Origin: Psammoneis japonica
Lineage: Eukaryota
Direction of reading: 5' to 3'
Length of the DNA stretch: 64,000 nucleotides
NCBI GenBank assembly: GCA_008632985.1
Contig: QPGO01000002.1
Span: 744,001-808,000 of the forward strand
The stretch's first letter is position 1; every line of letters starts with the position of its first letter. Both the position numbers and the translations under genes were made by a program. Below the pieces are notes generated by a model, which did not search any database, was not told the origin of the DNA, and saw only the letters and a program-made list of their open reading frames with translations. Shown piece after piece: positions 22,540-57,519 of this stretch.

Positions 22540-24611
22540 TTATTCTGGCTTTGTGTATATCAAATCCATACTTTCCACGTGCATCTTTTTCGAAAAGTGT
22601 TTGCTGCTTTCATCATCATCCTTGTCATTATCAAGTTTGATAATCTTTTTGGTCGTATTGAGTGGAGACGATGGCCCAACACCATCCGACATGCCCATGA
22701 CCTCGTCCTCGTCTTGGCGTGCATTTTCCCAATTGTGTTTGCATTGCGCCAAGTGCCGCTTACAATCGTCAATGGTCCCTTGTGGATTCAACAACATCCA
22801 CTTGATTTGTTCTTCCAAATAAATGCCAACTTGAGGTCCGCTTGGCAAATCGAGTAATTTGATCAATTCCTTGCCATTCAAGAGTGGTTTCATTTTCCAA
22901 CACAAGTCTAATTTCATTTCTTGCATGATTGCATGATAGACGGTACAAGATATCTGTAGAATGGATTCTCGTTCCGAAACATTTGTGTTTTCCGACTTGT
23001 CAAACTCTCTCAACAGGGTGATCGTTGTCAGCAAGAGACTTGTGACCCACAATTCCTTGATGGATCGCAATACGACACCCGCCTCGAGCCGAAATGGCTG
23101 GCTGGACGACAAAGTACCTGCATGTGGTTGTTTCGTTCCAACATGAGTTTGGCGTTGCGAAGCAAATAGGTCATTTTATCCACGGTATCCAGCACAGTCG
23201 TGACTCGAACGACATCTTTGGTTTTGAATTGAATGCCGTCCCGAATCATGTACTTGACGACACTCTGTCTCCTGCCCTTGTGGTCTGTATAGGAAAGGTG
23301 TCGAAAGGGCAAGACAAAGGTACATATATGCAAGAGACGTGTATCGACTGCACTCCTTTCTGTGCTACCAGCTGTTAGTGCTGCTGCTGCTGCTGCTTCG
23401 TCGGAATTGCTCTTGCGTGCTGCCATGTCTTCTTGATGCTTGTCATACACAGTAGGCAACAATTTTAACATCTCACACGATTCTTCCCATGCCATTTCTC
23501 TCTTGTGCGAGAGTTCCTCATGATTACCAACATACGGTTCTCCCAGTATTGTACCCACAATGGAATCATTGTTGGGAACAATAAACACACTCCCGGCAAG
23601 CTTTAAATGAAATATTGTTTGCAGTGCCTTGTGTGGCTTGGCACCTTTACCCGTCAACATACCCTCCAGTTCTTTGCCCACCCGTTGTCGGCTCACCTTG
23701 ACATGAAGCGACTTGTGCACCTCGGTGGAAACACACGCTTGCTCGAGTGCATCATCCAAGTCGAGATTGTACCGTACGGCAAAGCGAATGGCTCGCAACA
23801 CACGAAGGGGATCGTCATGAAAGGTCGTCATGGGATCCAGCGGCGTTACGAGAACACCCCGTTTCAAATCGGCAATACCCCGCTGTGTCCAGTCTTCGAC
23901 AAGTCTTGTTCTTAGATTAAAGAATAAGGCATTCAATGTAAAATCCCGTCGCTGCGCATCGTCCAGTGGCGTTCCAAAGGTGGTGGTGGGAATCCGCGAA
24001 TGGCTCTCGTATGATTCATTTCCACGCAAATTGGTAAAGTCAACCTCGACATGATGCACCACCATGGTGGCAGTCTCCAAGTGTTTCGATTGAGACGGAT
24101 TCGCCTTGATGACACCCATCTTACCCACGGCACTCTTATCTCCAACAATATCGTTTCGTCCCAATTTCTGTTTGAGATATTCTTGTACCAGCGTCGCAAA
24201 GTCTTTGCCCGTCAAACAGTCCACGGCTAAATCGACATCGTGACTGTACCGTCCCATGATTTTATCACGAACCCAACCACCGGCAATCCGAATCTCGACG
24301 TGACGGGCGGAAATGTCCGGCAACACGATTTCACCACGTTCAAACGCGTTGGCCGTCGACACCAAAACGTCAATGAGATGCTCTTCGTCTTGATCCAAAC
24401 ATAATACAACGGCTCCATCTTTTTCTGATGCTGTTGTTGTCGTTTGTTGTTGTTGTTGAGGTGAGCCTACAATCACACGTGTCGGTACAGAAACCGTCTC
24501 CTGACTTGGAGGAGGAGGAGGAGGAGGAGGTGTAGTTCCGTTTTGATTCGCCATGGTGCTGTGCGTCTGAGATCTGAGATGCTGTGATGCGTTGAGATGG
24601 CGGCTTCGCAT
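22540..24611 (-). CDS. CCA1: Class II tRNA nucleotidyltransferase (CCA-adding enzyme); 1-nt slip at ~23131; start codon uncertain (24611 or 24554)
   Basis: RIAGGWVRDK..DVD, NPSQSKHLETA, FGTPLDDAQRRDFTLNALF, DDPLRVLRAIRF, KVSRQRVGKE; C-terminal KPLLNG..GPQVG. Confidence 0.88.
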
Positions 24612-25351
24612 CAGTCGCGACAAGTGGCGAGAGGTGACAGACAGACGAGACGTGTGCGTGCTTTTTACGCATGCAGCAGCGCCTGCGGGTGCGGAGAGAT
24701 GCGCCCGCGCCGCCACAATGACGATGCGTCTTCAAGTCTGTTGTTGTGCTGCAGAGATGACAGCAAACAGCAATTGCTAAACCCAAGAACCAATGCGAAT
24801 GCAGAATGCTTCTGTTTTTTCTGCTTTTGTCTCTGTGGTCTCTGGATCGCTGGAGGAAGTCTTTTTTTTTGCTGCACAACTGACACAAAGTGCTGCTGTG
24901 CTGCACTCTCAACACTGCTGTTGATGTCAGTGCACATGATGGCCTCTTTCCCTTTGCTGGACATTTTGGCAAAACAGCTCACTTGACATGTTTGTTTGCT
25001 CTGGGCCCACACAAATGTTGTCATCAACACCTGAAAAATGCAGAATGTGCATGTTTGCTTGTGATGATTGTGTGGCATGAATGGAAACACCAGAGCCGCA
25101 CGCAGCACGCTCTCTCTCAAAGATCATGCCCTGCTGCTGGCTGGCCACCCACCAGCATGTTTTGTGCACTCCAGAAACATGCCAGGAATGTGACTTTTCC
25201 TTGCAAGCCTGGGACACCTGCTGCACACCACCAGCTGGTTTTCCTGACTGAGCGCATGAGCCCGCGTCATTTTGTGCAGTGCACACCACCTGTTTTTTCC
25301 AGCACAGGGGTGAGGAAACAAAGGATGCCAGAGCATGGTTGAGCAGCTTTG

Positions 25352-25461
25352 GCAACAACAACAGCAACAACAGCAACAATGGCAACAATGGCAAAAACAG
25401 CAACAACAGGAGCAACAACAGCAACAACAACAGCAACAACAACAGCAACAACAGCAACAAC
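25352..25461 (+). repeat. Imperfect (CAA/CAG)n microsatellite
   Basis: caacaacaacagcaacaacagcaacaatggc...; a shorter counterpart sits at 35458-35488. Confidence 0.85.
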
Positions 25462-27305
25462 ATTTTCTCTGTCCTCGGTTGGTGTCTCTGCATGGTTGCT
25501 GCAGCTGTGGTTTGTTGATCAGAACATTGGACAGATGCCAGCAAAGACTGGGCTTTCAACAAGCAGCTGGCCTGCACAGCTCTCAAGCTCAATGATGGGA
25601 AATGGAGCTTGCTTGTTGCAGCGGGTCTAACACAAATGAGAGTTTCAAAAATGGAGGTGGTTCTTTGTTCAGTTTTCTGGCACCCTCTTCCTCCTCCTCT
25701 CCTCCCCCAACTTTTGATCAACCTTGGTTGAGACAATTTCTCTCTGACATCTGACAAAAACAACAAATGCCACTCAACATGATGGCATTTCTTTCTGGCT
25801 GCCACAACAACAAACAACCAGCTCTGTTGAGAGCCAATCTCCTTTTTTGTGTGTGCATTGTCATTGTTGCTCTGTGCTGCCCACATCGAAGCATGTGCAC
25901 CCACAACAGCAGACCACTCAACATTTGATGCAATGCCCCTCACCTGCCCTGCTCCTTGCTCCTGGCCTCCAGCATGCACACAAAGTGGCTTGAAAAAGTC
26001 ATGGCTGCTTGCTCTAATTGGTCAAGTCAATGGATGCTGAAAAGGGTGCCAAAGCACATTTTTGCCATGGGACAAATTGCCCATTCACTGCCAGATGAGA
26101 AGAACACTGTTGAGTGCTGCTGCCATGTCTTGCTTGAGCTTGTGCTTGTTGCTGGAGAAGACCTTTGCTGGTTGCTGTTGCAAGAATGTGAAAGGAAGAA
26201 GTTGACATCACATGCTGACCCACGCACAATTGACGCTGCTGCCTCTGCTGTTGGACCTCTCTGAGCCATGCTGCAGCGACAAGAAAATTGGACAAAATGC
26301 AAACACTGTGCCACCGGACCCTTGTTGTGTGCATCATGGGCCTGGATGCTGGTGCCTTGGATGTTGTTGTTGCTGTTGTGTGTCCGCACATTGGGCAGTT
26401 GCTTGATGACAAAAGCTGTGCTGTGCAAAGTGAAAGGCCAAATCTGTGCTGTGCAAAGAAGCTCTGAGACCTTGTTGTTGTCATGGCTGGAACCAAAGGC
26501 TCTCATCCTCCACAAAGCAGACAGAAAGCAAACCAGCCAAATCTTTAAGATCAGCTCTGTCACCCAAGTGAAGGAGGCCTTTCATTCTCAAAATGACCAG
26601 CAAAAGGCAAGCTGGCAACAAAATGTTGTTGGAGCAGGAATGGCAAGTTGCACTCTCTTGCAAAACACAAAGAATGAGCTTGCAGAACAGCAACAATGTC
26701 CTCCAAATGCCACACAATGAACACCATCTGCCTCTGCTTTGGCCTGAGCGGCAATGCCAGGCAACCAAAATGCCAAAAAAGCCATGTCTGGCTTTCCCAT
26801 GGGACATGTGGTTGCAAAGATTGAAAGCATCCAGGCTGGCTTTGCCAGGTGCTTGAGAATGGCTTCTCAAGCACCCCTGGTGTGTCGTTCAGCTTCAAGC
26901 TGCATTCCTGAGCAAAGACTCTGTTTGGCGGGTCAAAAACAAGGTCCCAGCACAACTTTCTGTCTTTGCTTTTGTTGTGATTGACCTCATCCAATGCCCC
27001 AGTGACGGCATCAACAAATCCATCAATGGAGTTGCCACGGGTGGACTGATCAACCCCTGACTGTGAGGTGTCAACATTCAGCAATCAACAGACTGCCTCA
27101 ATTGAGTGAAAGGCATCCAAGCCAATCCTTGCAGTCTGGAACAAATGCAACAATGTGGCCACATGCTTGCAAACTTTGTGCCAAGTTCATCATGGAGTGC
27201 AGCTTGCCAATTGATGAGTGTTTTGGTCCATGAAGAGCACATTTTTTGTCTCCTGTGCTGGTTGCAGTTGATGCAAAATTCCATGATTTCCAATCATTGC
27301 TTCTT

Positions 27306-29522
27306 TGTGTGAGCAAGAGGTGTGAGACATGTGTGCAAGACATGTGTGAAATGTGTGCAAGGTGTTTGCAACATGTGTGCAAAATGTTTGAAAGGTGTGT
27401 GGGAGGTTTGAGCAAGACATGTGCAAGTTGTTTGTGGGGCCTGTGCAAAATGTGTGTGCAAAGTGTTTTTGCATGTGTGCAAGGCATGTGCAAGGTGTGT
27501 GTGAAATGTGTTCAAGGTGTGTGCAAGACATGTGCAAAGTGTTTGAAAGGTGTGTGGGAGATGTGTGCAACATGTGTGTGTGTGTGTCTGTGGTGTTTGT
27601 GAGATCTGTGCAAGATGTGTGTGTGACACATTTGCAAGTTGTTTGTGAGATGTGGCAAGATGTGTGTGAGGTGTTTGCAAGACATGTGCAAGTTGTGAGT
27701 TGTGTTCAAGATGTGCATGAGATGTTTGCGAGATGTTTGCAAGATGTGTGTGATGCACTTGTGTGCAAGGTGTTTGCAAGATGATGTGTGCCAGAGGATG
27801 TGTGAGTGTGTGTGAATTGCACAACAGATGTGTGTGGGGTGTTTGGGGGGATGTGTTTGAGCCATGTGCAAGGTGTTTGAGAGATGTGTGCACAATGTGT
27901 GCAAAACATGTGTGTGGTGCATTTGCAAGATGTGTGCATGATGTGTGCAAAATGTGTGTGAGGTGTTTCAGGGGCATTTGGGAGATGTGCACAAGACCTT
28001 TGCAGTGTGTTTGCAAGATGTTTGCATGATGACATCTGTGACGTGTTTTCAAGATGTGTGCAAAGTGCTTGCAAAATGTCTGCTTGACACACACAAGATG
28101 TGTGTCAAATGTGTGTGAGGTGTTTGCAAGATGTGCGCAAATTGTTTGCACAGTGTGCAGGAGTTGTGCATGAGGCATGTGCCAGGTGTTTGCAAGATCA
28201 TGTGCGCAGGTTTTCTGCAAGATGTTTGCCAGATGTGTGCAAGGCGTGTGTTTGAAATGTGTGCAAGATGCACTTGAAACACACAACTTGTGCACAGGGC
28301 ATTTGAGGGATGCACATGAGACCTTTGCAATGTGCTTTCAAGGTGTGTGCATGATGATGTGTGTGACATGTGTGTGGTGTGTTTGCAAGATGTGTGCAAG
28401 GTGTGCTTTCAAGATGTCTGCATGCAAGATGTGTGTGCAAGATGTGTGTCACATGTTTGCAAGGTGTTTGCAAGGTGTGTGCAAATTGTTTGTGAGGTGT
28501 GCAGGAGTTTTGAGGTGTGTGTGAGCTTGTGAGATGCAGGCAAGATTTCTGCAAGATGTGCACCAGATTTTTGTTCAAGAGGTGTGTGAGATGTTTGCAG
28601 AGTGTGCAAGATGTGTGTTGGGTGTGTTTGGGAAATGTGTGCACAAGACACATTCAAGGTGTTTGTGAGATGTGTGCAAGATGTGTGCAACACAAGTGCA
28701 ACATGTTTGTGAGATGTGTGCAAGATGAGGTGCTTGCAAGATGTGCGCAAACTGTGTGCAAGAGTTGTGCACAAGGCATGTGTGAGGCCTTTTGCAAGTT
28801 CTGCTTGCACAGTGTGCATGACACATGTGTGAGGTGTGAAAGATGTGTGCAACATGTGTGTGAGGTGTTTGGGAGATGTGTGTGAAATGTGTGTGAGATG
28901 TGTGCAAAATGTTTGAAAGGTGTGCGGGGGACATGTGCAAGATGTGTGTGAGGTGTTTGGGAGGTGTTTGCAAGTTGTGTGCAAGGTGCTGTGTGTGATG
29001 TGTTTGCAAGATGTGTGCAAGACATGATGTGTGAGGTGTGCAAGCATTGTGCATGATTCATGTGTGAGGTGTTTGCAAAAAGTGTGCAAGATGCATGTGT
29101 GAGGTGTTTGCAAGAGATGTGTGTGCAAGATGTGCATGAAATGTGTGCAAGACATGTCATGGGAGATGTGTGTGCGTGATGTGGCACAACATTTGAAAGA
29201 TGTGTGAGATGTGCACAAGACATGTCTGAGGTGTTTGTGAGATGTGCACAAGACATGTGCAAAGCAAGTGTGGGGGGCTTGGGAGATGTGTGTGAGGCAT
29301 GAGTGAGTTGTTTGCAAGATGTGTGCAAGACATGTGGGAGGGGTGTGTGTGTGTGTGCAATGTGTGAAAAATGTTTGAGAGGTGTGTGAGATGTGCACAA
29401 GACATGCCTGAGGTGTTTGCATGCTGTGTGAAGCAAGTGTGCTGTGCTTGGGAGATGTGTGCGAGGCGCGAGTGAGTTGTTTGCAAGATGTGTTCAAAGT
29501 GCATGTGAGGAGTTTGCAAGAC
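27306..29522. repeat. TG-rich complex satellite block 1 (~11-13-bp monomer GTGTG[CA/TG]AGAT)
   Basis: Continuous gtgtgcaagat / gtgtgtgagat / gtttgcaaggt variants. Confidence 0.92.
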
Positions 29523-31992
29523 CACATGGGCTCTCCAGGAAATCATTGCATTTGCAGCCTGGCGTGGGTCATGATGAGCACAAATCATGTCAGCCAGCAA
29601 GAGGTCAATTGAAAAAAAAAACAGCAGGTTTGGTGCTGCAATGACTTCACAGAGAAGAAGACACTCTTTTTGCATGCACAAAATGTGGGTCAAAACAAAA
29701 AATGTCACTTTCTGGATGAAGCACAGGATCACACCAACAAGCTTCAGAATGAAAAACCTGATCACACATCTTTTTAAATGTGCGGCACATTTTGAAAAAT
29801 GCACTCCCGGGCACTCTTTTTCAAGTGCAGAAATTGTGCTTGACTCTTCCTCACAGGAATGTTTTGTGCATGTCTGGGTTTGCATTTTGTGAGCTGTCCT
29901 TTGGCACACAGAAAAAGTGTGTGTGCACACAGATCCTTGCTTGGACAGAAAGAACCAGCACTCTGGTTGGCTCAATGAATTCCACACAAAATGTCTGGCA
30001 TTGTTGGGCACAGGAGAGGGGCCAGGAAGCATCAACATTGCCCCTGACAGAGCTGGTCTTGGATCAGCAGCCCAAACACATGGGCAATCACTGTGGTTTC
30101 CCACCCAGTCACAGAAACTTTTCAGAGTGCTTCACACACAACAAGCAGTCTTCTGCAAGCTTGGTGACACAGAGTTTGCAGATGGAAATGACTTTCATCC
30201 AAACCAGAGCCAGAGTGCTCAGGGCAGTCAGCTCTGACAGCCTCAAGCTTGTTGGTGATCTGAAATGCCATGTTGAACAATGTTTGGCATGACCCAAGTG
30301 TGTCATCCCCAAACTCTGCACACATCTTCAAGTCGTGCCACAGCCCAGTGTCTGCTTGGACTCAACAGCATCTCTTGCCCAACCTGAAAAAGATCATCTG
30401 AGTTGCTGGCTTGAGAGTTGAAAGATGTGCAGCAGTTGTCATGATGTCTTTTGTTCATCAATGTCAAAAGATCATTGCAAAACACAGGCTGCTGTGGACA
30501 GACTCTTGAAGGCAATGCATTCACACTGAATCTTTTGAGGTTGGCAACATTCTGCTGCATGCAAGAAGGTGCCCTGCCAAAGACAGATGAAACAATGCCA
30601 AACCTCCTTCAAATTCTGGGTCTTGATGCTCATGGTTTCAAGCTTGGCAATCTAAAAGACTTTGTTTGGCAAGGCATGGTGCAACAGAACACATCATCCC
30701 CGAGCTCTGTGCTGGCATCTGCAAGCCCCACCATGTCTGAATGTCTGCTCAGATGCGACAATGCCTTGATCCCAAAGAAGGTCTGCCAGCTGATTGTCCG
30801 CCATTGGCTTGAATTGAGAGATGTGCAGCAGTTGTCATTGTCTTCTTGTTCATGTTGAAAAATTGTTGCAAACCACAAGCCACTCTGGACAGACCTCATG
30901 AAGCAATGCTGTCCAAATCTGTTTGATGTGTTGGCAACATTTTGTGTTGGAGCCATTGTGACTGCCTTGTGAGGCTTCAATTTCACAGAGATCTGTCATT
31001 TCCACTTCATCCCAAAGGGCTCCCTGAAGAGCTGCTCATGCAAGGTGATTTTCTCCTTTGCACATGGAAGCTGGAGGCCATTTGCTTCTACATTGATCTT
31101 CAGAGAGGAAGCACCCAGATGACATCTGCAACACATTGAGCCAAGCTGGATGAGAGTGGGGAACCTGTTCCCACCTTCGAAGGCATCAAGCAACAAAAGA
31201 CAGAACCCTGCTTCATGGGTTGAGACGGAAACAGAGAATTTGTGTGTGCCAGCTCAAGCAAAGATGATGAAGAGAATGAGAGAACAGGTGGCACCACAGA
31301 GATCCAGCTGTGTGCTGATGACGCAATCAAACAAGCCAAAGTGCACCATTGCAAGTGAGTTGAACAGTTTCAGCAAATTTGATTGTCCAGTTGTTGTCAA
31401 AATGCACGCAAGCCTGTCTTGCAAGGTGGAAGGCAAGAACGTTCCCAAAACAGACTGGCCACTTGTGCTCCCTGGTTGGAGAACATGACTCCTTTTAGAA
31501 TTGCAACAATGAAGGTGGATTGGTGCTGTGCTTTTGCACAGATGTGCAATCCCATTGGAAGGAATTGGCTGATTGACGTGCCAACTTGCCTCTGCCGTTT
31601 GATCCTTTGATTCTTGTGACTTTTTTTTCCATGCAGCGAGTGCTGGAAAATCAGATTTGGATTTGCCTCTGCCATTTGATCCTTTGATTCTTGTGACACT
31701 TTGTTCCCCACGCGGCAAGTGCTGGAATCAGATTTGGATTGGAGGTGGTGCAATCCATGTCCGGATGGAGAATGATGCAAGGGATGCTTGTTCCTTGCAT
31801 CTTCAGCATGCCACACATTTGGTCTCAGAGACTGTCACATCAACTTCTTGGGTGTTGTTTCACCCAGGCTCCTCTTGATGTGCCGCGAAGTGATGCGCCA
31901 TGATGAAGAGGCACAGCAGCCAGGACAGCAATTTAGAAAGAGTGCACTGCAACTGTGAACAATGCTTGGATGAGTTGCTTGCTTTGTCGCAA

Positions 31993-32297
31993 CTTTCTGT
32001 GAAACTGCTTGGTGCATGTGAGTGATGAAGGATCATTCCTGCTCTAGAATCAAGGTGCTTGTGTGAATGTTTCTTGAGTCTTCACTTGCTTGCACTGCAG
32101 GTGCAGTCATTTGGAAGTGAGCTCACTGCTGGCAATCTTGTTGATGACATCAAATGTTGAATGGACTGATGTTTTTGGTCTCGGGGGTTCAAGACAACCT
32201 GCAATTGAAAACTCTAGAAACATTCACACAAGTGTCTTGATTCTGGAGTGGGAACGAACCTTTGTCACTCATGCGCGCCAATCAGTTTCACAGAAAA
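31993..32297. repeat. ~95-bp inverted repeat with ~110-bp spacer just upstream of the Penelope-like ORF
   Basis: tttctgtgaaactg...gtgtgaatgtttcttgagtcttcacttg (31993-32088) is the reverse complement of caattgaaaactctagaaacattcacac...cagtttcacagaaa (32202-32297). Confidence 0.9.
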
Positions 32298-32363
32298 GCA
32301 GCACACAGTGTGATGAAAAGCGTCAAATGCATTGGTGGCTCAAGTCTGCAAAAAAGAAAACAA

Positions 32364-34050
32364 GATGGAGCCCGGCGCAGCTTGACTCTCTGACCCCAGT
32401 CCTTCTCTGCCAGTGAAAAACCTGCTTTGTCTGGACTGCAAGAACCCAACTCAAACTGGTGCTTGAAACAGGAACCCCACTGGCAGGAAAGAACAATGCA
32501 GCAAAAGACAATGAAGTGCCAAAAGGAAAAGGAAAAAGGAAATGCCAGCCCCAAGCCTTGAAGACAAGTGGGAAACCATCTGCCAACAGACACAAGAATG
32601 AAGCCAAGAACTGCCACGGAAAAAAAAAGTGGGGATCATGGAGGACAGCACAGAGGCAAGCAAAGAGGAAAGAGAAGCAACAGGCAAAACCAGAGGCAAA
32701 ACTCCTCCACCAAGGAACCATGCTCCCCATCAAAATTGCTGAAAAACAATCCGACCGCTGCTGCATCAGAGTCCATGGTTTCATGCCAAATCCTGACGCC
32801 CCCCTGTGGGAAAATGCAGCAACGGCTGTTGACAAGATGAAAGCCATGGCACACTTCAACCACCTGGACAATGTGTCTTGCCGTGACCTCTGTGCAAAGC
32901 TGCAACCACCGCCTGGCACTGGATTGCTGTAAGAACTTGGACACAAGTTCTGCATAGAATCAAGCACCCCGTTCCAACACAACCACCATGGCACACAACG
33001 CTTCCAGCAAACCATGCATCTGTGGAACTTTGTTGAGAACTCCAAGCTTGCAAACAATGAAGACGGATGCAACCCACACCTGTGCATCCCCTCCAATTTT
33101 GCCCCTCCACAGATTGAAGATGGGGCAACAGAACTTTGAATGATGGACTTTGCAAACAAGACAGACAGAGCCAGTCAAACAGCCAACTGCCAACAACCCT
33201 GCTTTAATTTGATGCCACAGCAGTGCCAAAGACCACAAACATTGCAAAATGACAGACAACTCATCGTGTCCGAGACTCTCACCAAGTCCTTGCCAACTTG
33301 TGATTGCTTGGAAAACTGCCACCAGATGCTGAGCTGTTCACAGTCAATGCAGCAGGAATGTGCAGCAATGTCAATGCCAGCCATGCTCTGGAAACATTCC
33401 ACCAGTGGTTCCTTGAGCACCCTGATGAGATGCAAAAAAACTTCCCAATTGACTTCTTCCTTGCCATGCTGGAAATCATCATGACAAGAAACATCATCCA
33501 GTTTGACAACACCTGCTGGCTCCAAATCAACGGTGCAGCCATGGGTGCCAGTGCAGCCTGCATGTGCACCGCCATGTGCAAGGCTCTCCACGAATGCCAA
33601 AGCATGCTAACCCGACTCAACTTAGACCTGCCCTGTTGTGGATGATTCACAGATGACATGCTTGGTGCATGGACAGGTGGCGAAGGTGAAACATGGGACA
33701 AGTTCAAACACGAACTTAACAACTTTGGCACCTTGGAATGGGAAACCTCCAAGCTCAGTGACCCAGCTGCATTTCTGGATCTTGACATCAAGATGGGAGC
33801 AAACTGGTGCATTGAAACAAGAGCGCACCAGAAGGCCATGAACCTGTGCCTCTACATGCCCCCAAGCTCAACACATCCACCTGGAGTGCTGAGAAGCATT
33901 GTGCATGGAAACCTTTGCACATGTTGGGCACAAAATCCAAACAACAAGGAATGCCAAAAAAACAGTGGCCCAGTTCAGGGCACAGCGGGTTCAGCCAGTT
34001 GGCAGCGGTGTGCTCAAGACCCAAAAACCCAAGAGATGCCCTTGTGTGAA
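32364..34050 (+). mobile_element. Decayed Penelope-like retroelement (reverse transcriptase relic)
   Basis: LPPDAELFTVNAAGMCSNV, LEIIMTRNIIQFDNTCWLQINGAAMGASAAC, WFTDDMLGAW, AFLDLDI, RAHQKAMNLCLYMPPSSTHPPGVLRSIVHG match PLE RT motifs (MYTN, YW.Q..G.AMG, (Y/F).DD, FLD, Y.K...Y....S.HP) with Tyr turned to Cys/His. No GIY-YIG domain seen. Confidence 0.85.
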
Positions 34051-34559
34051 CACCGCTGAAGGAGCCCAACAGGCAGCGTGCTCCAGACATTGTCAAAATG
34101 CTCTCTCATGCACTGGAGCTCTGATTTGGCGAATCCATTGCAATGAGTCACCTCCGGTAAAAAACTCAAACAGGCCACCCACCACGTCACCACGGTGCTG
34201 CGGCTTGTGCCTGTTTTGAGTTTTTTCTGTTTTGTGTTTTGAGTTTGTTCACTTGTGCACTTGCTGCAGCAGAGCATGCTTCCACATCTGGCAGCAGCAG
34301 GAACATCAACTCGCTCTTTCTCAAACACCATTGGAGTTTTTGAGATGGATCTTTCTGATGCTCTTTCAACAACTGCCATGTCAGCTGCAATGACAGCCAT
34401 TGAAAAATGCCGATTTCGAAATTTTCAGCTCGAAAAACAGCCGACAACACTGACGAAGCAAAAGCAAAAGCTCACATCATTGAGCTTTGCATGTCAGGCA
34501 ACTCTTGATGGATTGCTGTTGTGCCAAAGGCTGTCAGTGCATTGGACAACCCCGAAAAC

Positions 34560-34910
34560 AATGCTCTTGGTCTTGATCCAAACACAACAAAATGGCTCCA
34601 TCTTTTTCTTCTGTTGTTGTTTGTTGTTGTTGTTGTTTGTTGTTGAGGTGAACCTCCAATCACACGTGTCAGTGCAGAAACTGTCTCCTGACTTGGAGGA
34701 GGAAGTGCAGCTCCATTTTGATTTGCCATGGTTGGTGGGGTGTGTCTGAGACAATGCTGTGTGGTGCATTGAGATGGCAGCTTCACATCAGTTGTGAGGA
34801 GTGAGTCATCGCAAAAAGTGGCAAGATGTGACAGACAGATGTGTGCATGCTTTTCATGCTCCCAGCAGTGTGTGCAGCATGCAGAGAGATGCTCTGCCCC
34901 GCCACAATGA
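34560..34910 (-). pseudogene. Duplicated, hypermutated 5' fragment of the CCA-adding enzyme gene (homology continues into upstream DNA to ~35765)
   Basis: atgctcttggtcttgatccaaac.. aligns with 24378-24722. It translates as MANQNGAALPPPSQETVSALTRVIGGSPQQQ versus MANQNGTTPPP..SQETVSVPTRVIVGSPQQQ. Confidence 0.9.
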
Positions 34911-35791
34911 CAGTGCATCCATTGCGCTGCAGCAAGACAACAGCCAGTGGCAATTGCCAAACCCAACAACCTGTGCGAGTGCGGAACACTTCTGTTTTTT
35001 TCTGTTTCTGTTTCTGCAGTCTCTGGGTTGCTGGAGAGGAGTTCTTTTTTTTTTCCACTGCGCCACACAGCCAACACCACAAAGTGCTGTGCTGCACTCC
35101 TGCCAGTGTTGTCAATGCACAAGACCTCTTCCCCTTTGGACATTTTGACAAAACAGCTCACTTGGCATGTTTGCTCTGGGCCCACACAAATTTGTCATCA
35201 ATGCCTGAAAAACGCAGAATGTGGCTGGCCACCCACCTGCATGTTTTGTGCACAGAAACATGCCAGGAAAGTGACTTCCTTGCAAGCCTGGTGCACCCGC
35301 TTGCACAGTCAACTGTGTGCGCATTTTGCACACCAGCTTGTTTTCCTGAGCGCATGACTCTCTGGGTCATTTTGTGCAGTGTGCGCCACTTGTTTTTCTC
35401 CAGTCAGTGCAGGGGTGAGGAAACTAAGGATGCCAGAGCACAGCTGAGCAGCTTTGGCGACAACAACAACAACGACAACAAAGCAACATTTTCTCTGTCC
35501 TCAGTGGTCATGTCTGCACCATGATTGCTGCAGCTGTGGTTTGTTGGTCAGAACATCAGCCAGATGCCAGCAAAGGCTGGGCTTTCAGGAAACAGCTGGC
35601 CAGCGCAACTCTCAAATGCCCAATGATGGAAAATGGAGTTTGTTTGTTGCAGCGGGTCCAAAGCAAATGAGAGTTTCAAAAATGGAGATGGCTCTTTGTT
35701 CAGTTTTCCAGCACCCTCCTCCTCTTCTCCTCCCCCTCCCCCAGCTCTTGACCAACCTTGGTTGATGACCAGCTCTGTTGTGAGCAAATCT

Positions 35792-35796
<5 letters not shown>

Positions 35797-35830
<34 letters not shown>

Positions 35831-36127
35831 NNNNNNNNNNNNNNNNNNNNNNNNNNNNNNNNNNNNNNNNNNNNNNNNNNNNNNNNNNNNNNNNNNNNNN
35901 NNNNNNNNNNNNNNNNNNNNNNNNNNNNNNNNNNNNNNNNNNNNNNNNNNNNNNNNNNNNNNNNNNNNNNNNNNNNNNNNNNNNNNNNNNNNNNNNNNNN
36001 NNNNNNNNNNNNNNNNNNNNNNNNNNNNNNNNNNNNNNNNNNNNNNNNNNNNNNNNNNNNNNNNNNNNNNNNNNNNNNNNNNNNNNNNNNNNNNNNNNNN
36101 NNNNNNNNNNNNNNNNNNNNNNNNNNN
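35797..36127. other. (TG)n run followed by an assembly gap (Ns at 35831-36127)
   Basis: Seen directly. Confidence 0.99.
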
Positions 36128-36989
36128 GCGCACAGCAGCTCGTCAAAGTCGCGGCTGCTTGCTCTGGTTGGTCAAGTTCATGGATGCTGAAAAGGGCACC
36201 ACAGCACATTTTTGCCATGGACCCATTGCCCATTCACTGCCAGATGAGCGCTGCTGCCATGCCTTGCTTGAGCTTGTGCTTGTTGCTGCAGAAGACGTTT
36301 GCTGGTTGCTGCTGCTGCAACAGTGTGAAAGGAAGAAGTTGACATCTGCCAACCCACACACACAGTTGACACTGTTGCCTCTGCTGTTGGACCTCTCTGA
36401 GCCATGCTGCAGTGACAAGAAAATTGGACAAAATGCAAACACCGCTGTGCCGTTGGACCCCCTTGTTGTGTGCATCATGGGCCTGGATGCTGGTGCCTTG
36501 AATGTTGTTGTTGCTGTTGTGTGTCCACACATTGGGCAGTTGCTTGATGACAAAAGCTGTGCTGTGCAAAGTGAAAGGCCAAATCTGCAATGTGCCAAGA
36601 GGCTCTGAGACCTTGTTGTTGCCATGGCTGGAGACCAAAGGCTCTCATCCTCCATGCAGCAGACAGAAAGCAAGCTCACTCAAATCTTTGAGAGCAGCTC
36701 TGTCGCCCAAATGGAGGAGGCCTGTCATTCTCAGAATGACCAGCAAGGCAAGCTGGCAACAAAATGTTGTTGGAGCAGGAATGGCAAGTTGCACTCTCTT
36801 GCAAAACACAAAGAATGAGCTTGCAGAACCAGCAACAATGTCCTCCAAATGCCACACAATGAACACCATCTGCCTCTGCTTTGGCCTGAGCGGCAATGCC
36901 AGGCATCCAAAACACCAAAAAAGCAATGTCTGGCTTTCCCATGGGACATGTGGTTGCAAAGATTGAAAGCATCCAGGCTGGCTTTGCAA

Positions 36990-38376
36990 GGTTCAATGTT
37001 CGGAAAAATGCACATTGCTTGTGCACCTGTGTTGGAAGTTGGGGTGGCCAGAGTGTGAAATCAAAGCCCCAGCCATTGGCTGCATCTTCTTGTGGAAAGG
37101 CCACTGAGCACTTTCAAGACACACAATGTCATCTTTGGACATTGCCAAAACGGGGGTGCAGGCACACAAGACAGGCTGCTTGCCATGTCATTCAAAGGGC
37201 TCAGGTGTGTGCAAGGAAGATGTTGTTGAGTACATCATCATCAAACCAGCCTTGCTCGCTGCACATGGTTCTGAAAGTGGGCTTGACATTCTCTTGTGAT
37301 CCACAAAGTGGGCTTGAATTGCCCAGACATCTTTGTTGGCTTTCAGAGTCAAGACAATGGGGCAGGGAAATTGGAGTTTTTTGGAGTGAAAAGTGTGCTC
37401 TTCTCCATTGTGCGCAGCTCTGGGAGTTTGTGAGAAGTGAAAACTGACCCTGCATTGACCTGGGCCAGTGGGACATTTGCATCTGGCAGGCATGAAACCT
37501 TCTCCTTTTGAAACTGGTCAATCACAACAAGCTCAAAAAGTGGTCCTGAAACATTGTTTGCAACAAGTGGGTCAGTGAAAACACACACAAGAGGTTTGCC
37601 TCATGTTTTTCCACACAGCCTGTCAAAGAACTGTCCAAAAAACAAGGTGCAGCTGGCGACATGCACACTGGAAAGACCAGCTTCAGAAAACCTCTTGATG
37701 GAAAACTGAGCATTTCTTGCTTGTTGCAGATCTTGGACAAATGACCAGGGCCAGCATCGCAAATGCTCAGGAGACAGTGAACCACAGACACTGTGATCTC
37801 TGCCCTTTGACTCTTGTCACATTCTTCCACAGGCTTGCGCATGCATGCAAGGACAGCAGCAACTGGCTTGTCTTTGCACTCTTCTTGAAATGGTGCCTTG
37901 TTCAGCAGCTCTGAAACTTGCAGCAGGCATTTCCCAGCTGCAGCAACAAGCTTGTTCCAAACTTTGTCATCAAAATCCTTTCGCTCTGGCCTCCACACTG
38001 ATTTCCTTGTCCCTGATTTCAAGTGGGTGCACTCACAGCCATTGAATCATTTGCTGTTTTCTTTGCAGGACAGACCATTGTCTGTGGATGCCAAGATCAC
38101 AGCGTGGGCACAGCACACATTTTTGTTCAGCTGCTTCATCCATGAGAATGGCTTTTCAAGCACCCTTGGTGTGTCTTTCACCTTCAAGCTGTGTTTCTGA
38201 GCAAAGCCTCTGTTGAGCTGGTCAAAAACAAGGTCCCAGCACAACTTTCTGTCTTTGCTTTTGTTGTGGTTGACCTCATTCAATGCCCCGCCAGTGATGG
38301 CATCAACAAATCCACCAATGGAGTTGCCATGGGTGGACTGATCAACCCATGATTGTGAGGTGTCAACATTCAGCAA
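36990..38376 (-). pseudogene. Decayed unidentified coding relic (partial copies at 46456-47099, 55417-56060, 26853-27084)
   Basis: Protein-like frames (DGFVDAITGALDEVN..WDLVFDQLNRGF; KDFDDKVWNKLVAAAGK; QGWFDDDVLNNIF) interrupted by stops and shifts. Confidence 0.35.
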
Positions 38377-38625
38377 TCAACAGACTGCCTCAATCAAGTG
38401 AAAGGCATCCAGCCAACCCTCACAGTCTCAAACAAATGCAACAATGTGGTCTCATGCTTGCAAACTTTGTGCCAAGTTCATCATGGAGTGCAGCTTGCCA
38501 ATGCCATGTGTGTCACACACTGTGAGTCCAAGATGAGTGTTTTGGTCCATGAAGAGCACATGTTTTGTCTCCTGTGCTGGTTGCAGTTGATGCAAAATTC
38601 CATGATTTCCAATCATTGCTTCTTT

Positions 38626-41600
38626 GTGTGAGCAAGAGGTGTGAGACATGTGTGCAAGACATGTGTGAAATGTGTGCAAGGTGTTTGCAACATGTGTGCA
38701 AAATGTTTGAAAGGTGTGTGGGAGGTTTGAGCAAGACACAAGCAAGTTGTTTGTGGGGCCTGTGCAAAATGTGTGTGCAAAGTGTTTTTGCATGTGTGCA
38801 AGGCATGTGCAAGGCATGTGTGAAATGTGTTCAAGGTGTGTGCAAGATGTGTGAAAAGTGTTTGAAAGGTGTGTGGGAGATGTGTGCAACACGTGTGTGT
38901 GTCTCTGTGGTGTTTGTGAGATCTGTGCAAGACGTGTGTGTGACACATTTGCAAGTTGTTTGTGAGATGTGGCAAGATGTGTGTGAGGTGTTTGCAAGAC
39001 ATGTGCAAGGTGTGAGTTGTGCTCAAGATGTGCGTGAGACATTTGCAAGATGTCTGCAAGATGTGTGTGATGCATTTGTGCAGTGTGTTTGCCAGATGTG
39101 TGTGAGATGTGTGCAAGGTGTTTGCAAGATGATGTGTGCCAGAGGATGTGTGAGTGCATGTGAGTTGCACAACAGATGTGTGTGGGTCATTGGGGGGGAT
39201 GTGTTTGAGCCATGTGCAAGGTGTTTGGGAGATGTGTGCACAATGTGTGCCAAACATGTGTGTCGTGTGTTTGCAAGATGCATGCAATGTGCTTGCAAGA
39301 GGTGTGCATGATGTGTGCAAGATGTGTGTGAGGTGTTTGTGGGTCATTTGGGAGATGTGCGCAAGACCTTTGCAGTGTGTTTGCAAGATGTTTGCATGAT
39401 GACATCTGTGACGTGTTTTCAAGATGTGTGCAAAGTGCTTGCAAAATGTCTGCTTGACACATGCAAGATGAGTGTCAAATGTGTGCAAGGTGTTTGCAAG
39501 GTGTGTGCAAATTGTTTGTGAGGTGTGAAGGAGTTTTGAGGTGTGCATGAGCTTGTGAGATGTGGGAAAGTTGGGTCATGATTGGCACAAATCATGTCAG
39601 CCACAACTTGTGCACAGGGCATTTGAAGGATGCACATGAGACCTTTGCAATGTGCTTTCAAGGTGTGTGCATGATGATGTGTGTGTCACGTGTGTGGTGT
39701 GTTTGCAAGATGTGTGCAAGGTGTGCTTTCAAGATGTCTGCATGCAAGATGTGTGTGCAAGATGTGTGTCAAATGTGTGCAAGGTGTTTGCAAGGTGTGC
39801 AGGAGTTTTGAGGTGTGTGTGTGAGCTTGTGAGATGTGGGCAAGTTGTCTGCAAGATGTGTGCCAGATTTTTGTGCAAGAGGTGCATGTGAAATGTGTGT
39901 GAGATGTTGTTTGCAGAGTGTGCGAGATGTGTGTTGGTTGTGTTTTGGAAATGTGTGCACAAGACACATTCAAAAAGTGTGTGTGAGAGATGTGTGCATG
40001 ATGTGTGCAACACAAGTGCAACGTGTTTGTGAGATGTGTGTAAGATGAGGTGCCTGCAAGATGTGTGCAAATTGTGTGCAAGAGTTGTGCACAAGGCGTG
40101 TGTGAGGCCTTTTGCAAGTTCTGCTTGCATCAGTGTGCATGACACATGTGTGAGGTGTGAAAGATGTGTGCAACATGTGTGTGAGGTGTTTGGGAGATGT
40201 GTCGGAGATGTGTGTGAAGTGTGTGTGAGATGTGTGCAAAATGTTTGAAAGGTGTGCGGGGGACATGTGCAAGATGTGTGTGAGGTGTTTGGGAGGTGTT
40301 TGCAAGTTGTGTGCAAGGTGCTGTGTGTGATGTGTTTGCAAGATGTGTGCAAGACATGATGTGTGAGGTGTGCAAGTGTTGTGCGTGATTCATGTGTGAG
40401 GTGTTTGCAAAAAGTGTGCAAGATGCATGTGTGAGGTGTTTGCAAGAGATGTGTGTGCAAGATGTGCATGAGATGTGTGCAAGACATGTCATGGGAGATG
40501 TGTGTGTGTGATGTGGTGAAACATTTGAAAGGTGTGTGAGATGTGCACAAGACATGTCTGAGGTGTTTGTGAGATGTGTGCAAGACATGTGCAAAGCAAG
40601 TGTGGGGTGATTGGGAGATGTGTGTGAGGTGTGAGTGAGTTGTTTGCAAGATGTGTTTAAGACATGTGGGAGATGTGTGTGTGTGTGCGATGTTTGAAAA
40701 ATGTTTGAAAGGTGTGCGAGATGTGCGCAAGACTTGTCTGAGGTGTTTGTGAGATGTGTGCAAGAAGACATGTGTGAAGCAAGTGTGCTGTGCTTGGGAG
40801 ATGTGTGCAAGGCATGAGCAAGTTGTTTCCAAGATGTGTTCAAAGTGCATGTGAGGTGTTTGCAAGACCACATGGGCTCTCCAGGAAATCATTGCATTTG
40901 CAGCCTGGCGTGGATCATGATTGGCACAAATCATGTCAGCCAGCAAGGGGTCAATTGAAAAAAATGCAGCAGGTTTGGTGCTGCAATGACTTCACAGAGA
41001 AGAAGACACTCTTTTTGCATGCACAAAAGATGTGTGCATGATGTGTGCAAGATGTGTGTGAGGTGTTTGCGGGTCATTTGGGAGATGTGTGCAAGACCTT
41101 TGCAGCACTTTTGCAAGATGTTTGCATGATGACATCTGTGACATGTTTTCAAGATGTGTGCAAAGTGCTTGCAAAATGTCTGCTTGGCACATGCAAGATG
41201 TGTGTCAAATGTGTGCAAGGTGTTTGCAAGGTGTGCACAAATTGTTTGGGAGGTTTGCAGGAGTTTTGAGGTGTGTGTGTGAGCTTGTGAGATGTGGGCA
41301 AGTTGTCTGCAAGATGTGTGCCAGATTTTTGTGCAAGAGGTCATGTGTGTGAAATGTGTGTGAGATGTTCACAGAGTGTGCAAGATGTGTGTCAGGGGTG
41401 TTTTGGAAATGTGCGCACAAGACACACTCAAGGTGTTTGTGAGATGTGTGCATGATGTGTGCAACACAAGTGCAGCGTGTTTGTGAGATGTGTGCAAGAT
41501 GAGGTGCTTGCAAGATGTGTGCAAATTGTGTGCAAGAGTTGTGCGCAAGGCATGTGTGAGGCCTTTTACAAGTTCTGCTTGCACAGAGTGCATGACGTGT

Positions 41601-43438
41601 GAAAGATGTGCACAACATGTGTGTGAGGTGTTTGGGAGATGTGTGTGAGATGTGTGTGAAATGTGTGGGAGATGTGTGTGAGGTGTGTGCAACATGTTTG
41701 AAAGGTGTGGAGGACATGTGCAAGATGTGTGTGAGGTGCTTGGGAGGTGTTTGCAAGTTGCGCACAAGGTGCTGCATGTGATGTGTTTGCAAGATGTGTG
41801 CAAAACATGATGTCTGAGGTGTGCAAGCATTGTGCATGAGACATGTGTGAGGTGTTTGCAAAAAGTGTGCAAGATGCATGTGTGAGGTGTTTGCAAGAGG
41901 TGTGTGCAAGATGTGCATGAGATGTGTGCAAGACATGTCACAGGAGATGTGTGTGTGCGATGTGTGAAAAATGTTTGAAAGGTGTGTGAGATGTGCACAA
42001 GACATGTCTGAGGTGTTTGTGAGATGTGCCCAAGACATGTGCAAAGCAAGTGTGGGGTGCATGGGAGATGTGTGTGAGGCATGTGTGAGTTGTTTGCAAG
42101 ATGTGTTCAAAGTGCATGTGAGGTGTTTGCAAGACCACATGGGCTCTCCAGGAAATCGCTGCATTTGCAGCCTGGCATGGGTCATGATTGGCACAAATCA
42201 TGTCAGCCACAACTTGTGCACAGGGCATTTGAAGGATGCACATGAGACCTTTGCAATGTGCTTTCAAGGTGTGTGCATGTTGATGTGTGTGTCACGTGTG
42301 TGGTGTGTTTGCAAGATGTGTGCAAGGTGTGCTTTCAAGATGTCTGCATGCAAGATGTGTGTGCAAGATGTGTGTCACATGTTTGCAAGGTGTGTGCAAA
42401 TTGTTTGTGAGGTGTGCAGGAGTTTTGAGGTGTGTGTGAGCTTGTGAGATGCAGGCAAGATTTCTGCAAGATGTGCACCAGATTTTTGTTCAAGAAGTGT
42501 GTGAGATGTTCGCAGAGTGTGCAAGATGTGTGTTGGGTGTGTTTGGGAAATGTGCGCCCAAGACACATTCAAGGTGTTTGTGAGACGTGTGCATGATGTG
42601 TGCAACACAAGTGCAATGTGTTTGTGAGATGTGTGCAAGATGAGGTGCTTGCAAGATGTGTGCAAATTGTGTGCAAGAGTTGTGCACAAGGCATGTGTGA
42701 GGCCTTTTGCAAGTTCTGCTTGCACAGCGTGCATGACACATGTGTGAGGTGTGAAAGATGTGTGCAACATGTGTGTGAGGTGTTTGGGAGATGTGTGTGA
42801 AATGTGTGTGAGATGTGTGCAAAATGTTTAAAAGGTGTGCGGGGGACATGTGCAAGATGTGTGTGAGGTGTTTGGGAGGTGTTTGCAAGTTGTGTGCAAG
42901 GTTCTGTGTGTGACATGTTTGCAAGATGTGTGCAAGACATGATGTGTGAGGTGTGCAAGCACAGTGCGTGAGACATGTGTGAGGTGTTTGCAAAAAGTGT
43001 GCAAGATGCATGTGTGAGGTGTTTGCAAGAGATGTGTGTGCAAGATGTGCATGAAATGTGTGCAAGACATGTCATGGGAGATGTGTGTGCGTGATGTGGC
43101 ACAACATTTGAAAGATGTGTGAGATGTGCACAAGACATGTCTGAGGTGTTTGTGAGATGTGCACAAGACATGTGCAAAGCAAGTGTGGGGGGCTTGGGAG
43201 ATGTGTGTGAGGCGTGAGTGAGTTGTTTGCAAGATGTGTGCAAGACATGTGGGAGGGGTGTGTGTGTGTGTGCAATGTGTGAAAAATGTTTGAGAGGTGT
43301 GTGAGATGTGCACAAGACATGCCTGAGGTGTTTGCATGCTGTGTGAAGCAAGTGTGCTGTGCTTGGGAGATGTGTGCGAGGCGTGAGTGAGTTGTTTGCA
43401 AGATGTGTTCAAAGTGCATGTGAGGAGTTTGCAAGACC
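38626..43438. repeat. TG-rich satellite block 2 (internally rearranged, with short non-satellite inserts)
   Basis: Same monomer as block 1; 42.2-43.4 kb matches 28.3-29.5 kb. Confidence 0.92.
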
Positions 43439-46400: not shown

Positions 46401-47348
46401 TGGACAATGTGTCTTGCCATGACCTCTGTGCAAAGCTGCAACCACTGCCCGGCATCTTGGACAAACGACCAGGGCCAGCATCGCAAATGCTCAGGAGACA
46501 GTGAGCCACAGACACTGTGATCTTTGCCCTTTGACTCTTGTCACATTCTTCCACAGGCTTGTGCATGCATGCAAGGACAGCAGCAACTGGCTTGTCTTTG
46601 CACTCTTCTTGAAATGGTGCCTTGTTCAGCAGCTCTGAAACTTGCAGCAGGCATTTCCCAGCTGCGGCAACAAGCTTGTTCCAAACTTTGTCATTAAAAT
46701 CCTTTCACTCTGGCTTCCACACACTGATTTCCTTGTCCCTGATTTCAAGTGGGTGCACTCACAGCCATTGAATCCTTTGCTGTTTTTTTTGCAGGACAGA
46801 CCATTGTCTGTGGATGCCAAGATCACAGCGTGGGCACAGTGCACATTTTTGTTCAGCTGCTTCATCCATGAGAATGGCTTCTCAAGCACCCTTGGTGTGT
46901 CTTTCAGCTTCAAGCTGTGTTCCTGAGCAAAGCCTCTGTTGAGCTGGTCAAAAACAAGGTCCCAGCACAACTTTCTGTCTTTGCTTTTGTTGTGATTGAC
47001 CTCATCCAATGCTCCAGTGATGGCATCAACAAATCCATCAATGGAGTTGCCATGGGTGGACTGATCAACCTCTGATTGTGAGGTGTCAACATTCAGCAAT
47101 CAACAGACTGCCTCAATCAAGTGAAAGGCATCCAGCCAACCCTCACAGTCTCGAACAAATGCAACAATGTGGCCACATGCTTGCAAACTTTGTGCCAAGT
47201 TCATCATGGAGTGCAGCTTGCCAATGCCATGTGTGTCACACACTGTGAGTCCAAGATGAGTGTTCTGGTCCATGAAGAGCACATGTTTTGTCTCCTGTGC
47301 TGGTTGCAGTTGATGCAAAATTCCATGATTTCCAATCATTGCTTCTTT

Positions 47349-49504: not shown

Positions 49505-49719
49505 GGAGTCGCCTCAGAGATGCATTCTTGAATGACTTTGCAAAATTTTGCAATGTCCGCATTGCAACATTGTTGGCCAATTGGACTGCACAAAATTTAG
49601 CCTGTTGCCCATCACACATGTTGGCAATGAATGATTGCTCTCTGCAAACGAATGAGCTCATTTGCACAGCTTTGCAGCTTTCGACAACAAGAAAGTCATT
49701 GCAGTGTTTATCGCCAAAT

Positions 49720-49857
49720 AACTTTCAACAACTTTTTGTTGAAAGTCGTCACTTTCAACACTTTTTGTTGAAAGACGTAACTTTCAACAACTTTTCGTTG
49801 AAACACGCAACTTTCAACACCTTTTTGTTGAAAGACGTAACTTTCAACAACTTCAAC
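49720..49857. repeat. 30-bp tandem array of GTTGAAAG-N6-CTTTCAAC palindromes (left)
   Basis: About 4.5 units read directly. Confidence 0.9.
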
Positions 49858-50900
49858 AGAAAACTTGTGGGCACGAAAATCTGATTTGAAAAGCGACGTC
49901 ATCTAAGACAAGCATGCATGACCGACATGCATCGTTGGGTGCAGTGTTTGCTGCAGCACTTTACTCAGCAAACTGCAGCGAGCACAATGAAGCGAGCAGA
50001 CGGTGTCCACTTTACGGCATGACATCTCAACGATGCTTGCACCGTTTTCCCCATTTCTTTTTTCATTGTTGGGAGCAATTGCACAATGCATCCTTCTGGG
50101 TTGGTCCCATTGTGTGTCATTGAGAATTGTGGATTTCTGTTTTGTTTGAAACCTCAAAGCAATTTCAATTTTTTTTAATGGCGCGCATGAAGTGTGCAGG
50201 TCAGTGCCATTCGATTCTCAGTGGTGCTGTCACCAATGTTCTCACTTCTAAGTCCTTTGTTGATTCTAATGAGACGTGACGTGTTGAGCCGTGTCCACAC
50301 CTTGGTGTGACTGACGGAGTTGCTTGTGACTTGGCACTTTTGTCCAAGGATGAAACCACCTGAGACAGGGCCCTGCAGCATGCTGGGACCCAGACTCGGA
50401 ACGGTGGATGGGATTGCTGGGCTCAGAGGATGGAGCAGCCGATGGTTTGGCACTGGGATGATTCTCACTTAGAGCTGTAGACAGCGCCTGACCACGCACT
50501 GGGTGAGATCGGAGGCAGATCACTGCCAGGTGGGAGCTTTGCTTGGTGCGAAGTGCGTTGGACGGCGGCTCACTTGGAGCCATCGAAGGTGCTCCACTGC
50601 CAGAAGATTTCAAGAAATTGACAATTCTGAAACTGCTGCAGCTGAAAATTCTGAAACTGCCACACTTTACACTCTGAAACTGCCGCCATGAACTTTGAAA
50701 CTGCCACCACAAATTGTCAAAAAACTGCTTCTGCTAAAAACCACCAAACCAGCACTGAACTGCCAAGCCAACTTCACGCCGCTCTTTTAGATTTTGGCAA
50801 GGTGTGCATCGCTCATGCTGTTCTCATCACGATCTTTGACTTTTGTGTTGCCCGACTGCAGTGCAACCCCAAAAACAATGTCTCCACACGTGTCGATGTG

Positions 50901-57475: not shown

Positions 57476-57519
<44 letters not shown>

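Follow-up and report, generated by a model that had tools for sequence, protein, structure and literature searches.

Context-biased loss of TpA and CpG dinucleotides within a sharply bounded, repeat-rich domain of the Psammoneis japonica genome

What has removed nearly all TA and most CG dinucleotides from a 36.5-kb block of DNA lying between two genes of Psammoneis japonica? We have addressed this question in a stretch of 64,000 nucleotides (contig QPGO01000002.1, positions 744,001 to 808,000 of the forward strand), hereafter the window, in which positions are counted from the first letter. The block, which we call the island (24760..61240), was delimited by its composition and is built of segmental repeats and minisatellite DNA. 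An original prediction, made from the letters of the first third of the island (24778..35430), had held that the few surviving TAs reveal the sequence context preferred by a mutator. Based on the analyses below, we consider it very likely that the island has undergone a real, domain-limited and context-biased conversion of TA and CG.

We have compared the island with its flank, that is, the window DNA outside 24760..61240, which is mostly coding and was taken as a proxy for the ancestral island composition. The observed/expected ratio (o/e) of TA was 0.03 in the island and 0.54 in the flank, that of CG was 0.18 and 0.98, respectively, and that of CA/TG was 2.03 and 1.15. Expressed as surviving fractions, 6.6% of the TAs and 17% of the CGs were left. 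The TA density was 0-8 per kb in the island versus 20-60 per kb outside it, and along the island the CG o/e stayed at about 0.1-0.3, with a CA/TG o/e of 1.7-2.7. The GC content hardly differed (0.47 in the island, 0.49 in the flank), and the same was true of the o/e of AA (1.16 vs 1.18) and AG (0.92 vs 0.98). When the counts were summed for each N-YR-N context (N, any base; Y, pyrimidine; R, purine), island and flank were about equal, which fits an in-place conversion of TA and CG.

The transition between the two compositions was abrupt, each island edge being less than 100 bp wide in a scan with 300-bp windows. The left edge (24728..24796), placed by the drop in CG, lies upstream of a gene for a tRNA CCA-adding enzyme, ~200 bp from its start. 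There, counts of 12 and 7 CGs per 100 bp gave way to 1 and 0; position 24727 holds the last CG of the flank and 24666 its last TA. The right edge (61240..61283), placed by the rise in TA, lies ~300 bp past the 3' end of a gene for a protein with helicase-associated (HA) domains; TAs went from 0-1 to 3-6 per 100 bp and the first unconverted TA outside a YTAR context was found at 61283. The same scan revealed no second TA/CG-free stretch in the window besides 24760..61240.

The direction of change could be read at both edges, where repeat ends that jut out past the island adjoin the genes and are unmutated. On the left, the segment 24378..24760 comprises the 5' end of the CCA-adding enzyme gene together with its upstream region, lies outside the island and contains 6 TAs and 28 CGs. 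It aligns to a mutated paralog inside the island (34561..34945) with no TA and 4 CGs. All six TAs were lost in this pair, the changes including four T>C and one A>G at TA, and 21 CG transitions were counted. On the right, the final 262 bp of the last repeat copy (61265..61526, just outside the island) are unmutated, with 12 TAs and 10 CGs. They align to a mutated paralog at 32209..32471 and, over their last third, also to sequences at 45.9 kb and 54.9 kb. Transitions were found at 11 of the 12 TAs and 7 of the 10 CGs, compared with 11 differences among ~216 other bases, which brought the polarised CG transitions to 28 (7 from the right edge and 21 from the left). Since the copies outside the island are unmutated and their paralogs inside are changed, the direction is known to be TA>TG/CA and CG>TG/CA. 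These are directional changes occurring at tens of times the background, as read from ~650 bp of unmutated paralog in the window and, for the chemistry, from ~50 polarised sites.

The conversion acted in place. Of 136 two-base differences among the island copies, 90 had CA in one copy and TG in the other. Such differences arise only when one copy changed on one strand of an ancestral TA or CG and the other copy on the opposite strand, hence the process continued after the duplications. One pair of segments (31255-31634 and 45170-45546) carries eight CA/TG doublet differences within 380 bp and is otherwise 98% identical, a cluster that suggests a mosaic history, through gene conversion or segments of differing age.

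Targeting follows the position in the domain and not the repeat status. Segments of single-copy depth within the island were converted, and two flank repeats (514 bp and 1 kb) had normal TA and CG. The first of these flank repeats, which served as the unconverted control, is a tandem array of 2.8 copies at 9078-10522 with 98-99% identity between units, a TA o/e of 0.66 and a CG o/e of 1.06. We infer that the island corresponds to a chromatin domain with active genes at its borders, and this domain is probably silent.

The TAs that survived were counted exactly by context. In 24778..35430 there are 20, at the same positions that had been found by eye in the original prediction, and its division by context also stood: 15 are YTAR, 2 are YTAY (31089 and 33853, both CTAC), 3 are RTAR (GTAA at 32930, ATAG at 32955 and GTAA at 34158) and none is RTAY. 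The 970 TAs of the flank comprise 155 YTAR (16%), 209 RTAR, 306 YTAY and 300 RTAY, and the survivors of the stretch were not in proportion to these ordinary contexts (χ2 of 53, p of 2e-11). Over the whole island 85 TAs remain (57 YTAR, 14 RTAR, 13 YTAY and 1 RTAY), a raw count that includes paralogous copies sharing sites and whose entries are thus not independent. Collapsing paralogous positions gave 63 TA sites, and collapsing also the units of a 30-bp tandem repeat gave 58 (36 YTAR, 11 RTAR, 10 YTAY and 1 RTAY). The 58 sites differed both from all flank TAs (χ2 of 97) and from the flank TAs outside long open reading frames (ORFs; χ2 of 66). A scheme in which TAs are made in proportion to the CA/TG contexts of the island, and would therefore be mostly RTAY, was rejected (χ2 of 95).

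The segment 49500..52675, which is unique within the window, is less converted than the rest of the island (TA o/e of 0.11, CG o/e of 0.63). Its 24 collapsed TAs comprise 13 YTAR, 6 RTAR, 5 YTAY and no RTAY, where the flank density would give 18, 24, 35 and 35, respectively. TAs common to paralogous copies were YTAR at 10 of 12 sites, and in alignments of three to four copies a loss was seen at 1 of the 39 remaining-TA copy-sites and at 8 of the 42 CG copy-sites. These data supported the reasoning of the original prediction that the context pattern reflects a differential removal of TA: RTAY was lost first and YTAR last, so that the residual TAs are mostly YTAR.

The stronger wording, that YTAR escapes, could not be kept. 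Only 57 of the ~206 YTAR expected are left (~70% gone), and two of the three polarised YTAR sites were mutated. Neither is TAR immune, as four TAR>TGR changes were seen (CTAG>CTGG, CTAA>CTGA, GTAG>GTGG and GTAA>GTGA). YTAY and RTAR sites together provided 11 polarised transitions, 8 of them in the predicted direction and 3 against it. The proposed target, RTA>RCA or equivalently TAY>TGY, therefore holds as a 4- to 7-fold preference that agrees with the half-site fit described below, and fails as an exemption of the remaining contexts. A tetranucleotide rule was also found to be insufficient, with TTTA and TCTA enriched ~4-fold among the survivors and ACTA and CCTA depleted like RTA.

The 16 NTAN counts were fitted with an additive model that treats the two strands as independent targets, the hazard of each depending on which base precedes T (or, read on the opposite strand, follows A). 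This gave half-site hazards of 3.31 for A, 2.31 for G, 0.84 for C and 0.48 for T. The additive model gave a χ2 of 9.5 on 12 degrees of freedom, compared with a χ2 of 189 on 15 degrees of freedom for a context-free model. Statistically, this shows that the two strands of TpA are attacked independently at rates ordered ATA > GTA >> CTA > TTA, with a 4- to 7-fold preference, to which an effect of the -2 base is added. The choice of strand pointed the same way: at TA sites differing between island copies, the change had hit the R-T-A side in 22 of 28 cases, compared with 25 of 66 for the Y-T-A side, these events not being phylogenetically independent. Likewise, in R..R contexts the gain of CA was +158 to +251 and that of TG was +18 to +70. 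The CA/TG doublets in unique DNA, for which the ancestral dinucleotide is undefined, showed no class bias (17 R..Y, 16 Y..R, 14 R..R and 11 Y..Y).

The CpG preference is unlike that of TpA, in that a 5' G protects and T, C and A behave alike. The half-site hazards for CG were 1.26 for T, 1.02 for C, 0.96 for A and 0.37 for G, the additive fit was poor (χ2 of 41 on 12 degrees of freedom) and the best-surviving context was GCGC. In a hand tally of the polarised pairs, GCG had become GCA in 8 cases and GTG in 2, and TCG had become TTG in 6 cases and TCA in 2.

We propose that a local process, confined to a sharply bounded, non-coding repeat domain, would turn TpA and CpG into TpG and CpA by transitions. 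The changes would occur by hydrolytic deamination on the same strand, the A of T-A-Y being converted to inosine, which is read as G, and the C or 5-methylcytosine of H-C-G (H, any base but G) being deaminated to U or T. A nucleic-acid deaminase recruited to the domain could carry out both reactions. For this reading as a whole, which blends the conversion with its deamination chemistry, we would give a probability of roughly 0.55, and it is the best explanation that we can offer. The deamination of A and C, taken by itself as the chemistry, is put forward tentatively. That it would amount to a natural DNA-adenine hypermutator, working in silent chromatin on the A of T-A-Y and the C of CpG of the same strand and serving genome defence or heterochromatin ageing, we regard as possible but doubtful.

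The deamination of an exposed strand is what the right-edge pair brings to mind. On the + strand, TG was the product in 10 of the 11 TA changes and 6 of the 7 CG changes (16 of 18 jointly), which places C>T and A>G together on that strand, as such a deamination would give. The original prediction had favoured an enzyme over GC-biased conversion on the grounds of context specificity. GC-biased conversion is indeed excluded, mainly by evidence other than context: CG>TG/CA is a strong-to-weak change occurring in the same domain and the GC content is not raised. It also does not fit the finding that other A:T sites are unaffected. The enzyme itself is something that we infer.

Several points weigh against this explanation. 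Outside the right edge and the minisatellite, strand coordination (CA versus TG, in palindromic contexts) was weak, with a modest excess variance, and the left-edge pair showed no strand coordination. The neighbour rules of TA and CG differ, and two separate processes could thus be at work. The protected TAG and TAA are the opposite of what the 3' G preference of ADAR enzymes would lead to. Seven TAs appeared to be new by majority rule, the new T having a 5' Y in five of them, and there may be some bias in TA creation. Finally, the flanks are mostly coding and a mere proxy for the ancestry of the island, although the flank outside ORFs gave the same answer.

Among the other explanations, an alteration of thymine comes first, and we consider it unlikely. 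In this scheme the T of R-T-A would be oxidised or modified (to a base of the 5-hydroxymethyl- or 5-formyl-uracil type) and would mispair with G to give T>C, 5-methylcytosine in CpG would give C>T in parallel, and the target would be the 5-methyl-pyrimidine of both YpR steps. In its favour, the context rule takes its simplest form when it is stated for the pyrimidine (which base precedes T), and the dinucleotides lost, TA and CG, are each a pyrimidine followed by a purine and each yield CA/TG. There are precedents for such bases, namely the hydroxylated T before A in dinoflagellate DNA and the base J of kinetoplastids, and 5-formyluracil is known to mispair with G. The scheme would, however, require CG and TA to change on opposite strands, whereas at the right edge CG>TG and TA>TG were placed on the same strand (16 of 18), and the 5' neighbour rules of T and C differ.

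An improbable alternative is that TA removal was blind to context and that the residual TAs were newly made, through C>T at Y-C-A by a cytosine mutator that favours YTAR and never yields RTAY. Eight singleton TAs stand opposite CA/TG in at least two other copies, and the 5' Y at the new T in five of the seven singletons set against a CA/TG majority is what this would predict. However, the eight singletons are not restricted to YTAR (4 YTAR, 3 RTAR and 1 YTAY), and the gain rate of 0.003 per CA/TG copy-site is lower than that of other transitions (55 in 5,553). The 10 of 12 YTAR among the TAs shared by paralogs must predate the duplications, the less-converted segment displays a pattern of loss (13 YTAR of ~18, no RTAY of ~35), and the direction in which TAs are lost itself depends on context. 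The preferential loss of TA thus accounts better for the survivors.

It is more improbable still that cytosine alone was attacked and that the TpA changes were collateral of error-prone patch repair, in the manner of polymerase eta, which makes A>G errors at WA motifs (W, A or T). Such a by-product would couple C>T and A>G in one domain and, as at the right edge, on one strand. Yet errors at WA should also erode AA, and AA is not depleted and AG is not raised while 97% of TA is gone. The less-converted segment, moreover, had lost TA ahead of CG (0.11 vs 0.63), the wrong order for a by-product.

We see very little chance that no mutator was involved, the island owing its composition to selection against TA and CG (against UpA and CpG in transcripts, or against cleavage sites) or being foreign DNA of that native composition. 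In RNA viruses and mRNAs, selection is known to keep both CpG and UpA scarce. This is contradicted by the in-island copies of host gene-proximal DNA, which were converted, and it is at odds with a 97% depletion across unrelated sequences that ends at edges less than 100 bp wide and with the finding that none of the 55 island ORFs scanned had a Pfam domain above the cut-off.

Least probable of all is that the pattern was introduced by sequencing or assembly, for instance through miscalled modified bases, since, in spite of a 297-N gap inside the island and of all runs with the sequence coming from one sample, contigs assembled independently from one of these runs (X1) agree with the window with 0-1 mismatches at normal depth and the copies differ by indels and other substitutions, like real paralogs. 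Three sequencing runs contain the locus, all from one sample of one study, and no RNA run is listed with it. The Logan contigs from run X1 that match single-copy island segments, with 0-1 mismatches, have a depth of 63-71, compared with 59 for the flank. This agreement rules out an artefact of the assembly consensus. Run X1 is probably from the window's own sample, therefore the agreement is not an independent biological replication. An X1 contig covering 23001-24137 (1,137 flank positions) showed 8 differences from the window, and five single-copy island contigs (3,607 bp) showed 2, one of which (A/G at 24803) is a CA/CG difference. This difference between flank and island may reflect the haplotype sampled.

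Pfam searches identified the products of the flank genes as a PUB protein, a PH plus ArfGap protein, the CCA-adding enzyme and the protein with HA domains. The CCA-adding enzyme gene (23028..24554, - strand) encodes a PolyA_pol head domain (E of 2e-23), and the named best relatives of its product are all from diatoms, with a top identity of 57%. A protein atlas likewise placed the enzyme among those of eukaryotes. The HA-domain protein gene (61570..62532, - strand) matches PF03457 in three stretches (E of 4e-47). Further away, an ORF of 1803 aa (3466-8877, + strand) gave weak matches to Mrr_N and to winged-helix domains and carries an internal tandem duplication of ~1 kb (4112-5091 vs 5087-6039, 88% identity). 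At 7001-8000 the TA o/e was 0.18 with CG near normal, probably an effect of coding or of an amino-acid repeat.

The segmental repeats of the island are 85-98% identical and are accompanied by four TG-rich minisatellite blocks, all assigned to the + strand. The first (27201..29520) has a degenerate unit of ~33 bp and a GC skew of +0.3 to +0.5; the others lie at 38500..43500, 47200..49600 and 56150..58600. Across the blocks the GC skew reached +0.54 and the AT skew was negative. The read-contig depth of the minisatellite was 300-600, compared with 60 for single-copy DNA, which suggests many further copies in the genome. A metagenome scan with a 20-base word from the minisatellite retrieved nine loci, none with extended similarity and all with a TA o/e of 0.41-0.59 and ordinary CG; these matches are due to chance. 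The segment 33676-34529 is unique in the window and already TA/CG-free, and its read-contig depth of 334-422 (versus ~60) makes it a dispersed repeat with ~6 near-identical copies elsewhere in the genome.

The less-converted segment contains two arrays (49719-49853 and 50902-51065) of a 30-bp unit with a hairpin-forming inverted repeat (CTTTCAACA...TGTTGAAAG). Their units vary at one position, reading GTAA, CTAA or GCAA, and thus hold an internal TA/CA difference. The gap mentioned above is a scaffold gap of 297 N at 35831-36127, inside the second copy of the left-hand segment. The spacing of the surviving CGs and TAs gave no nucleosome-like periodicity clearly above chance, the top peaks being at 134 and 143 bp with ~10 times the median power.

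Long ORFs are expected in the island because TAA and TAG are absent. The only Pfam matches among the 55 island ORFs were two sub-threshold, low-complexity ones (E of 0.005-0.01), and the translations of the two longest ORFs are of low complexity. Searches of the whole window against Rfam, at gathering thresholds, and for tRNA genes returned no match.

Should the process be general in this genome, it would represent a new eukaryotic way to disable or age repeated DNA and a possible natural source of a DNA adenine-editing activity. It would also be a warning to gene finders and repeat annotators, as the loss of TAA and TAG produces long spurious ORFs and similarity searches no longer reveal where the DNA came from. 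The half-site rule, ATA > GTA >> CTA > TTA, provides a concrete and testable signature of this process.

In a literature search that did not extend to subscription journals or supplements, we found no description of a joint erasure of TpA and CpG, nor of an A:T>G:C hypermutation of repeats in diatoms or other algae. To our knowledge, the point hypermutation of repeats over whole regions has been described in fungi and invariably affects cytosine; the island loses A:T at TpA more fully than CpG, and its edges stop at gene borders. We also know of no natural hypermutator of DNA adenine.

The decay of CpG through 5-methylcytosine resembles the island in its CG>TG/CA changes, in a domain that is presumably methylated and next to gene flanks with a CG o/e near 1. 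It leaves unexplained the loss of TpA, which is more complete and faster than that of CpG. In antibody somatic hypermutation, the action of AID is followed by polymerase eta errors at WA, and C>T is likewise coupled with A>G in a bounded region. The island differs from it in its untouched AA and in its CpG/TpA specificity.

ADAR enzymes, which hyper-edit double-stranded RNA, and the tRNA deaminases TadA/ADAT share with the island an A>G change with an obligatory 5' neighbour of the T/U type. They act on RNA in nature, and engineered derivatives of TadA/ADAT exist as DNA base editors. The natural site of TadA, U-A-C, resembles the T-A-Y preferred in the island. Of the flank-equivalent counts, 2 of 286 TAT and 12 of 320 TAC remain, so TAT was lost at least as fully as TAC. 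ADAR prefers a 5' U or A and a 3' G, whereas in the island AA is undepleted and TAG and TAA are protected.

A further precedent for a change at A:T pairs is the aberrant excision by TDG of a T opposite hypoxanthine (deaminated adenine), through which, according to Talhaoui et al. (2014, PMC4041421), base excision repair can fix G:C without replication. In their description the context is TpG/CpX and CpG is made, whereas in the island the context is TpA and CpG is lost.

Two of the closest parallels come from the hypermutation of fungal repeats. In the Pucciniomycotina, Horns et al. (2012, PMC3318451) describe a hypermutation of repeats at TpCpG resembling repeat-induced point mutation (RIP). 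C>T changes at CpG in repeats and a 5' neighbour preference occur in both cases, the hazard in the island being greatest for TCG (1.26) and smallest for GCG (0.37). The preference among 5' T, C and A is nevertheless weak in the island, only G standing apart, and its larger effect is on TpA, which is untouched in the system as described there.

RIP of ascomycetes has in common with the island the dense transitions, the repeated non-genic DNA, a strong dinucleotide signature and sharp bounds. RIP depends on cytosine methyltransferases of the RID/DIM-2 type and operates in a sexual phase. Diatoms possess DNMT4 enzymes, which are relatives of RID and whose function is given as unknown by Hoguin et al. 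(2023, PMC9998398). The homology rule of RIP fails in the island, as the edge copies 24378-24760 and 61265-61526 are unmutated, single-copy segments are converted and the flank repeats are normal. As described for RIPCAL, RIP causes C>T chiefly at CpA and hence creates TpA at the expense of CpA and TpG, whereas in the island TpA is destroyed, CpA and TpG are the products and A:T pairs are mutated.

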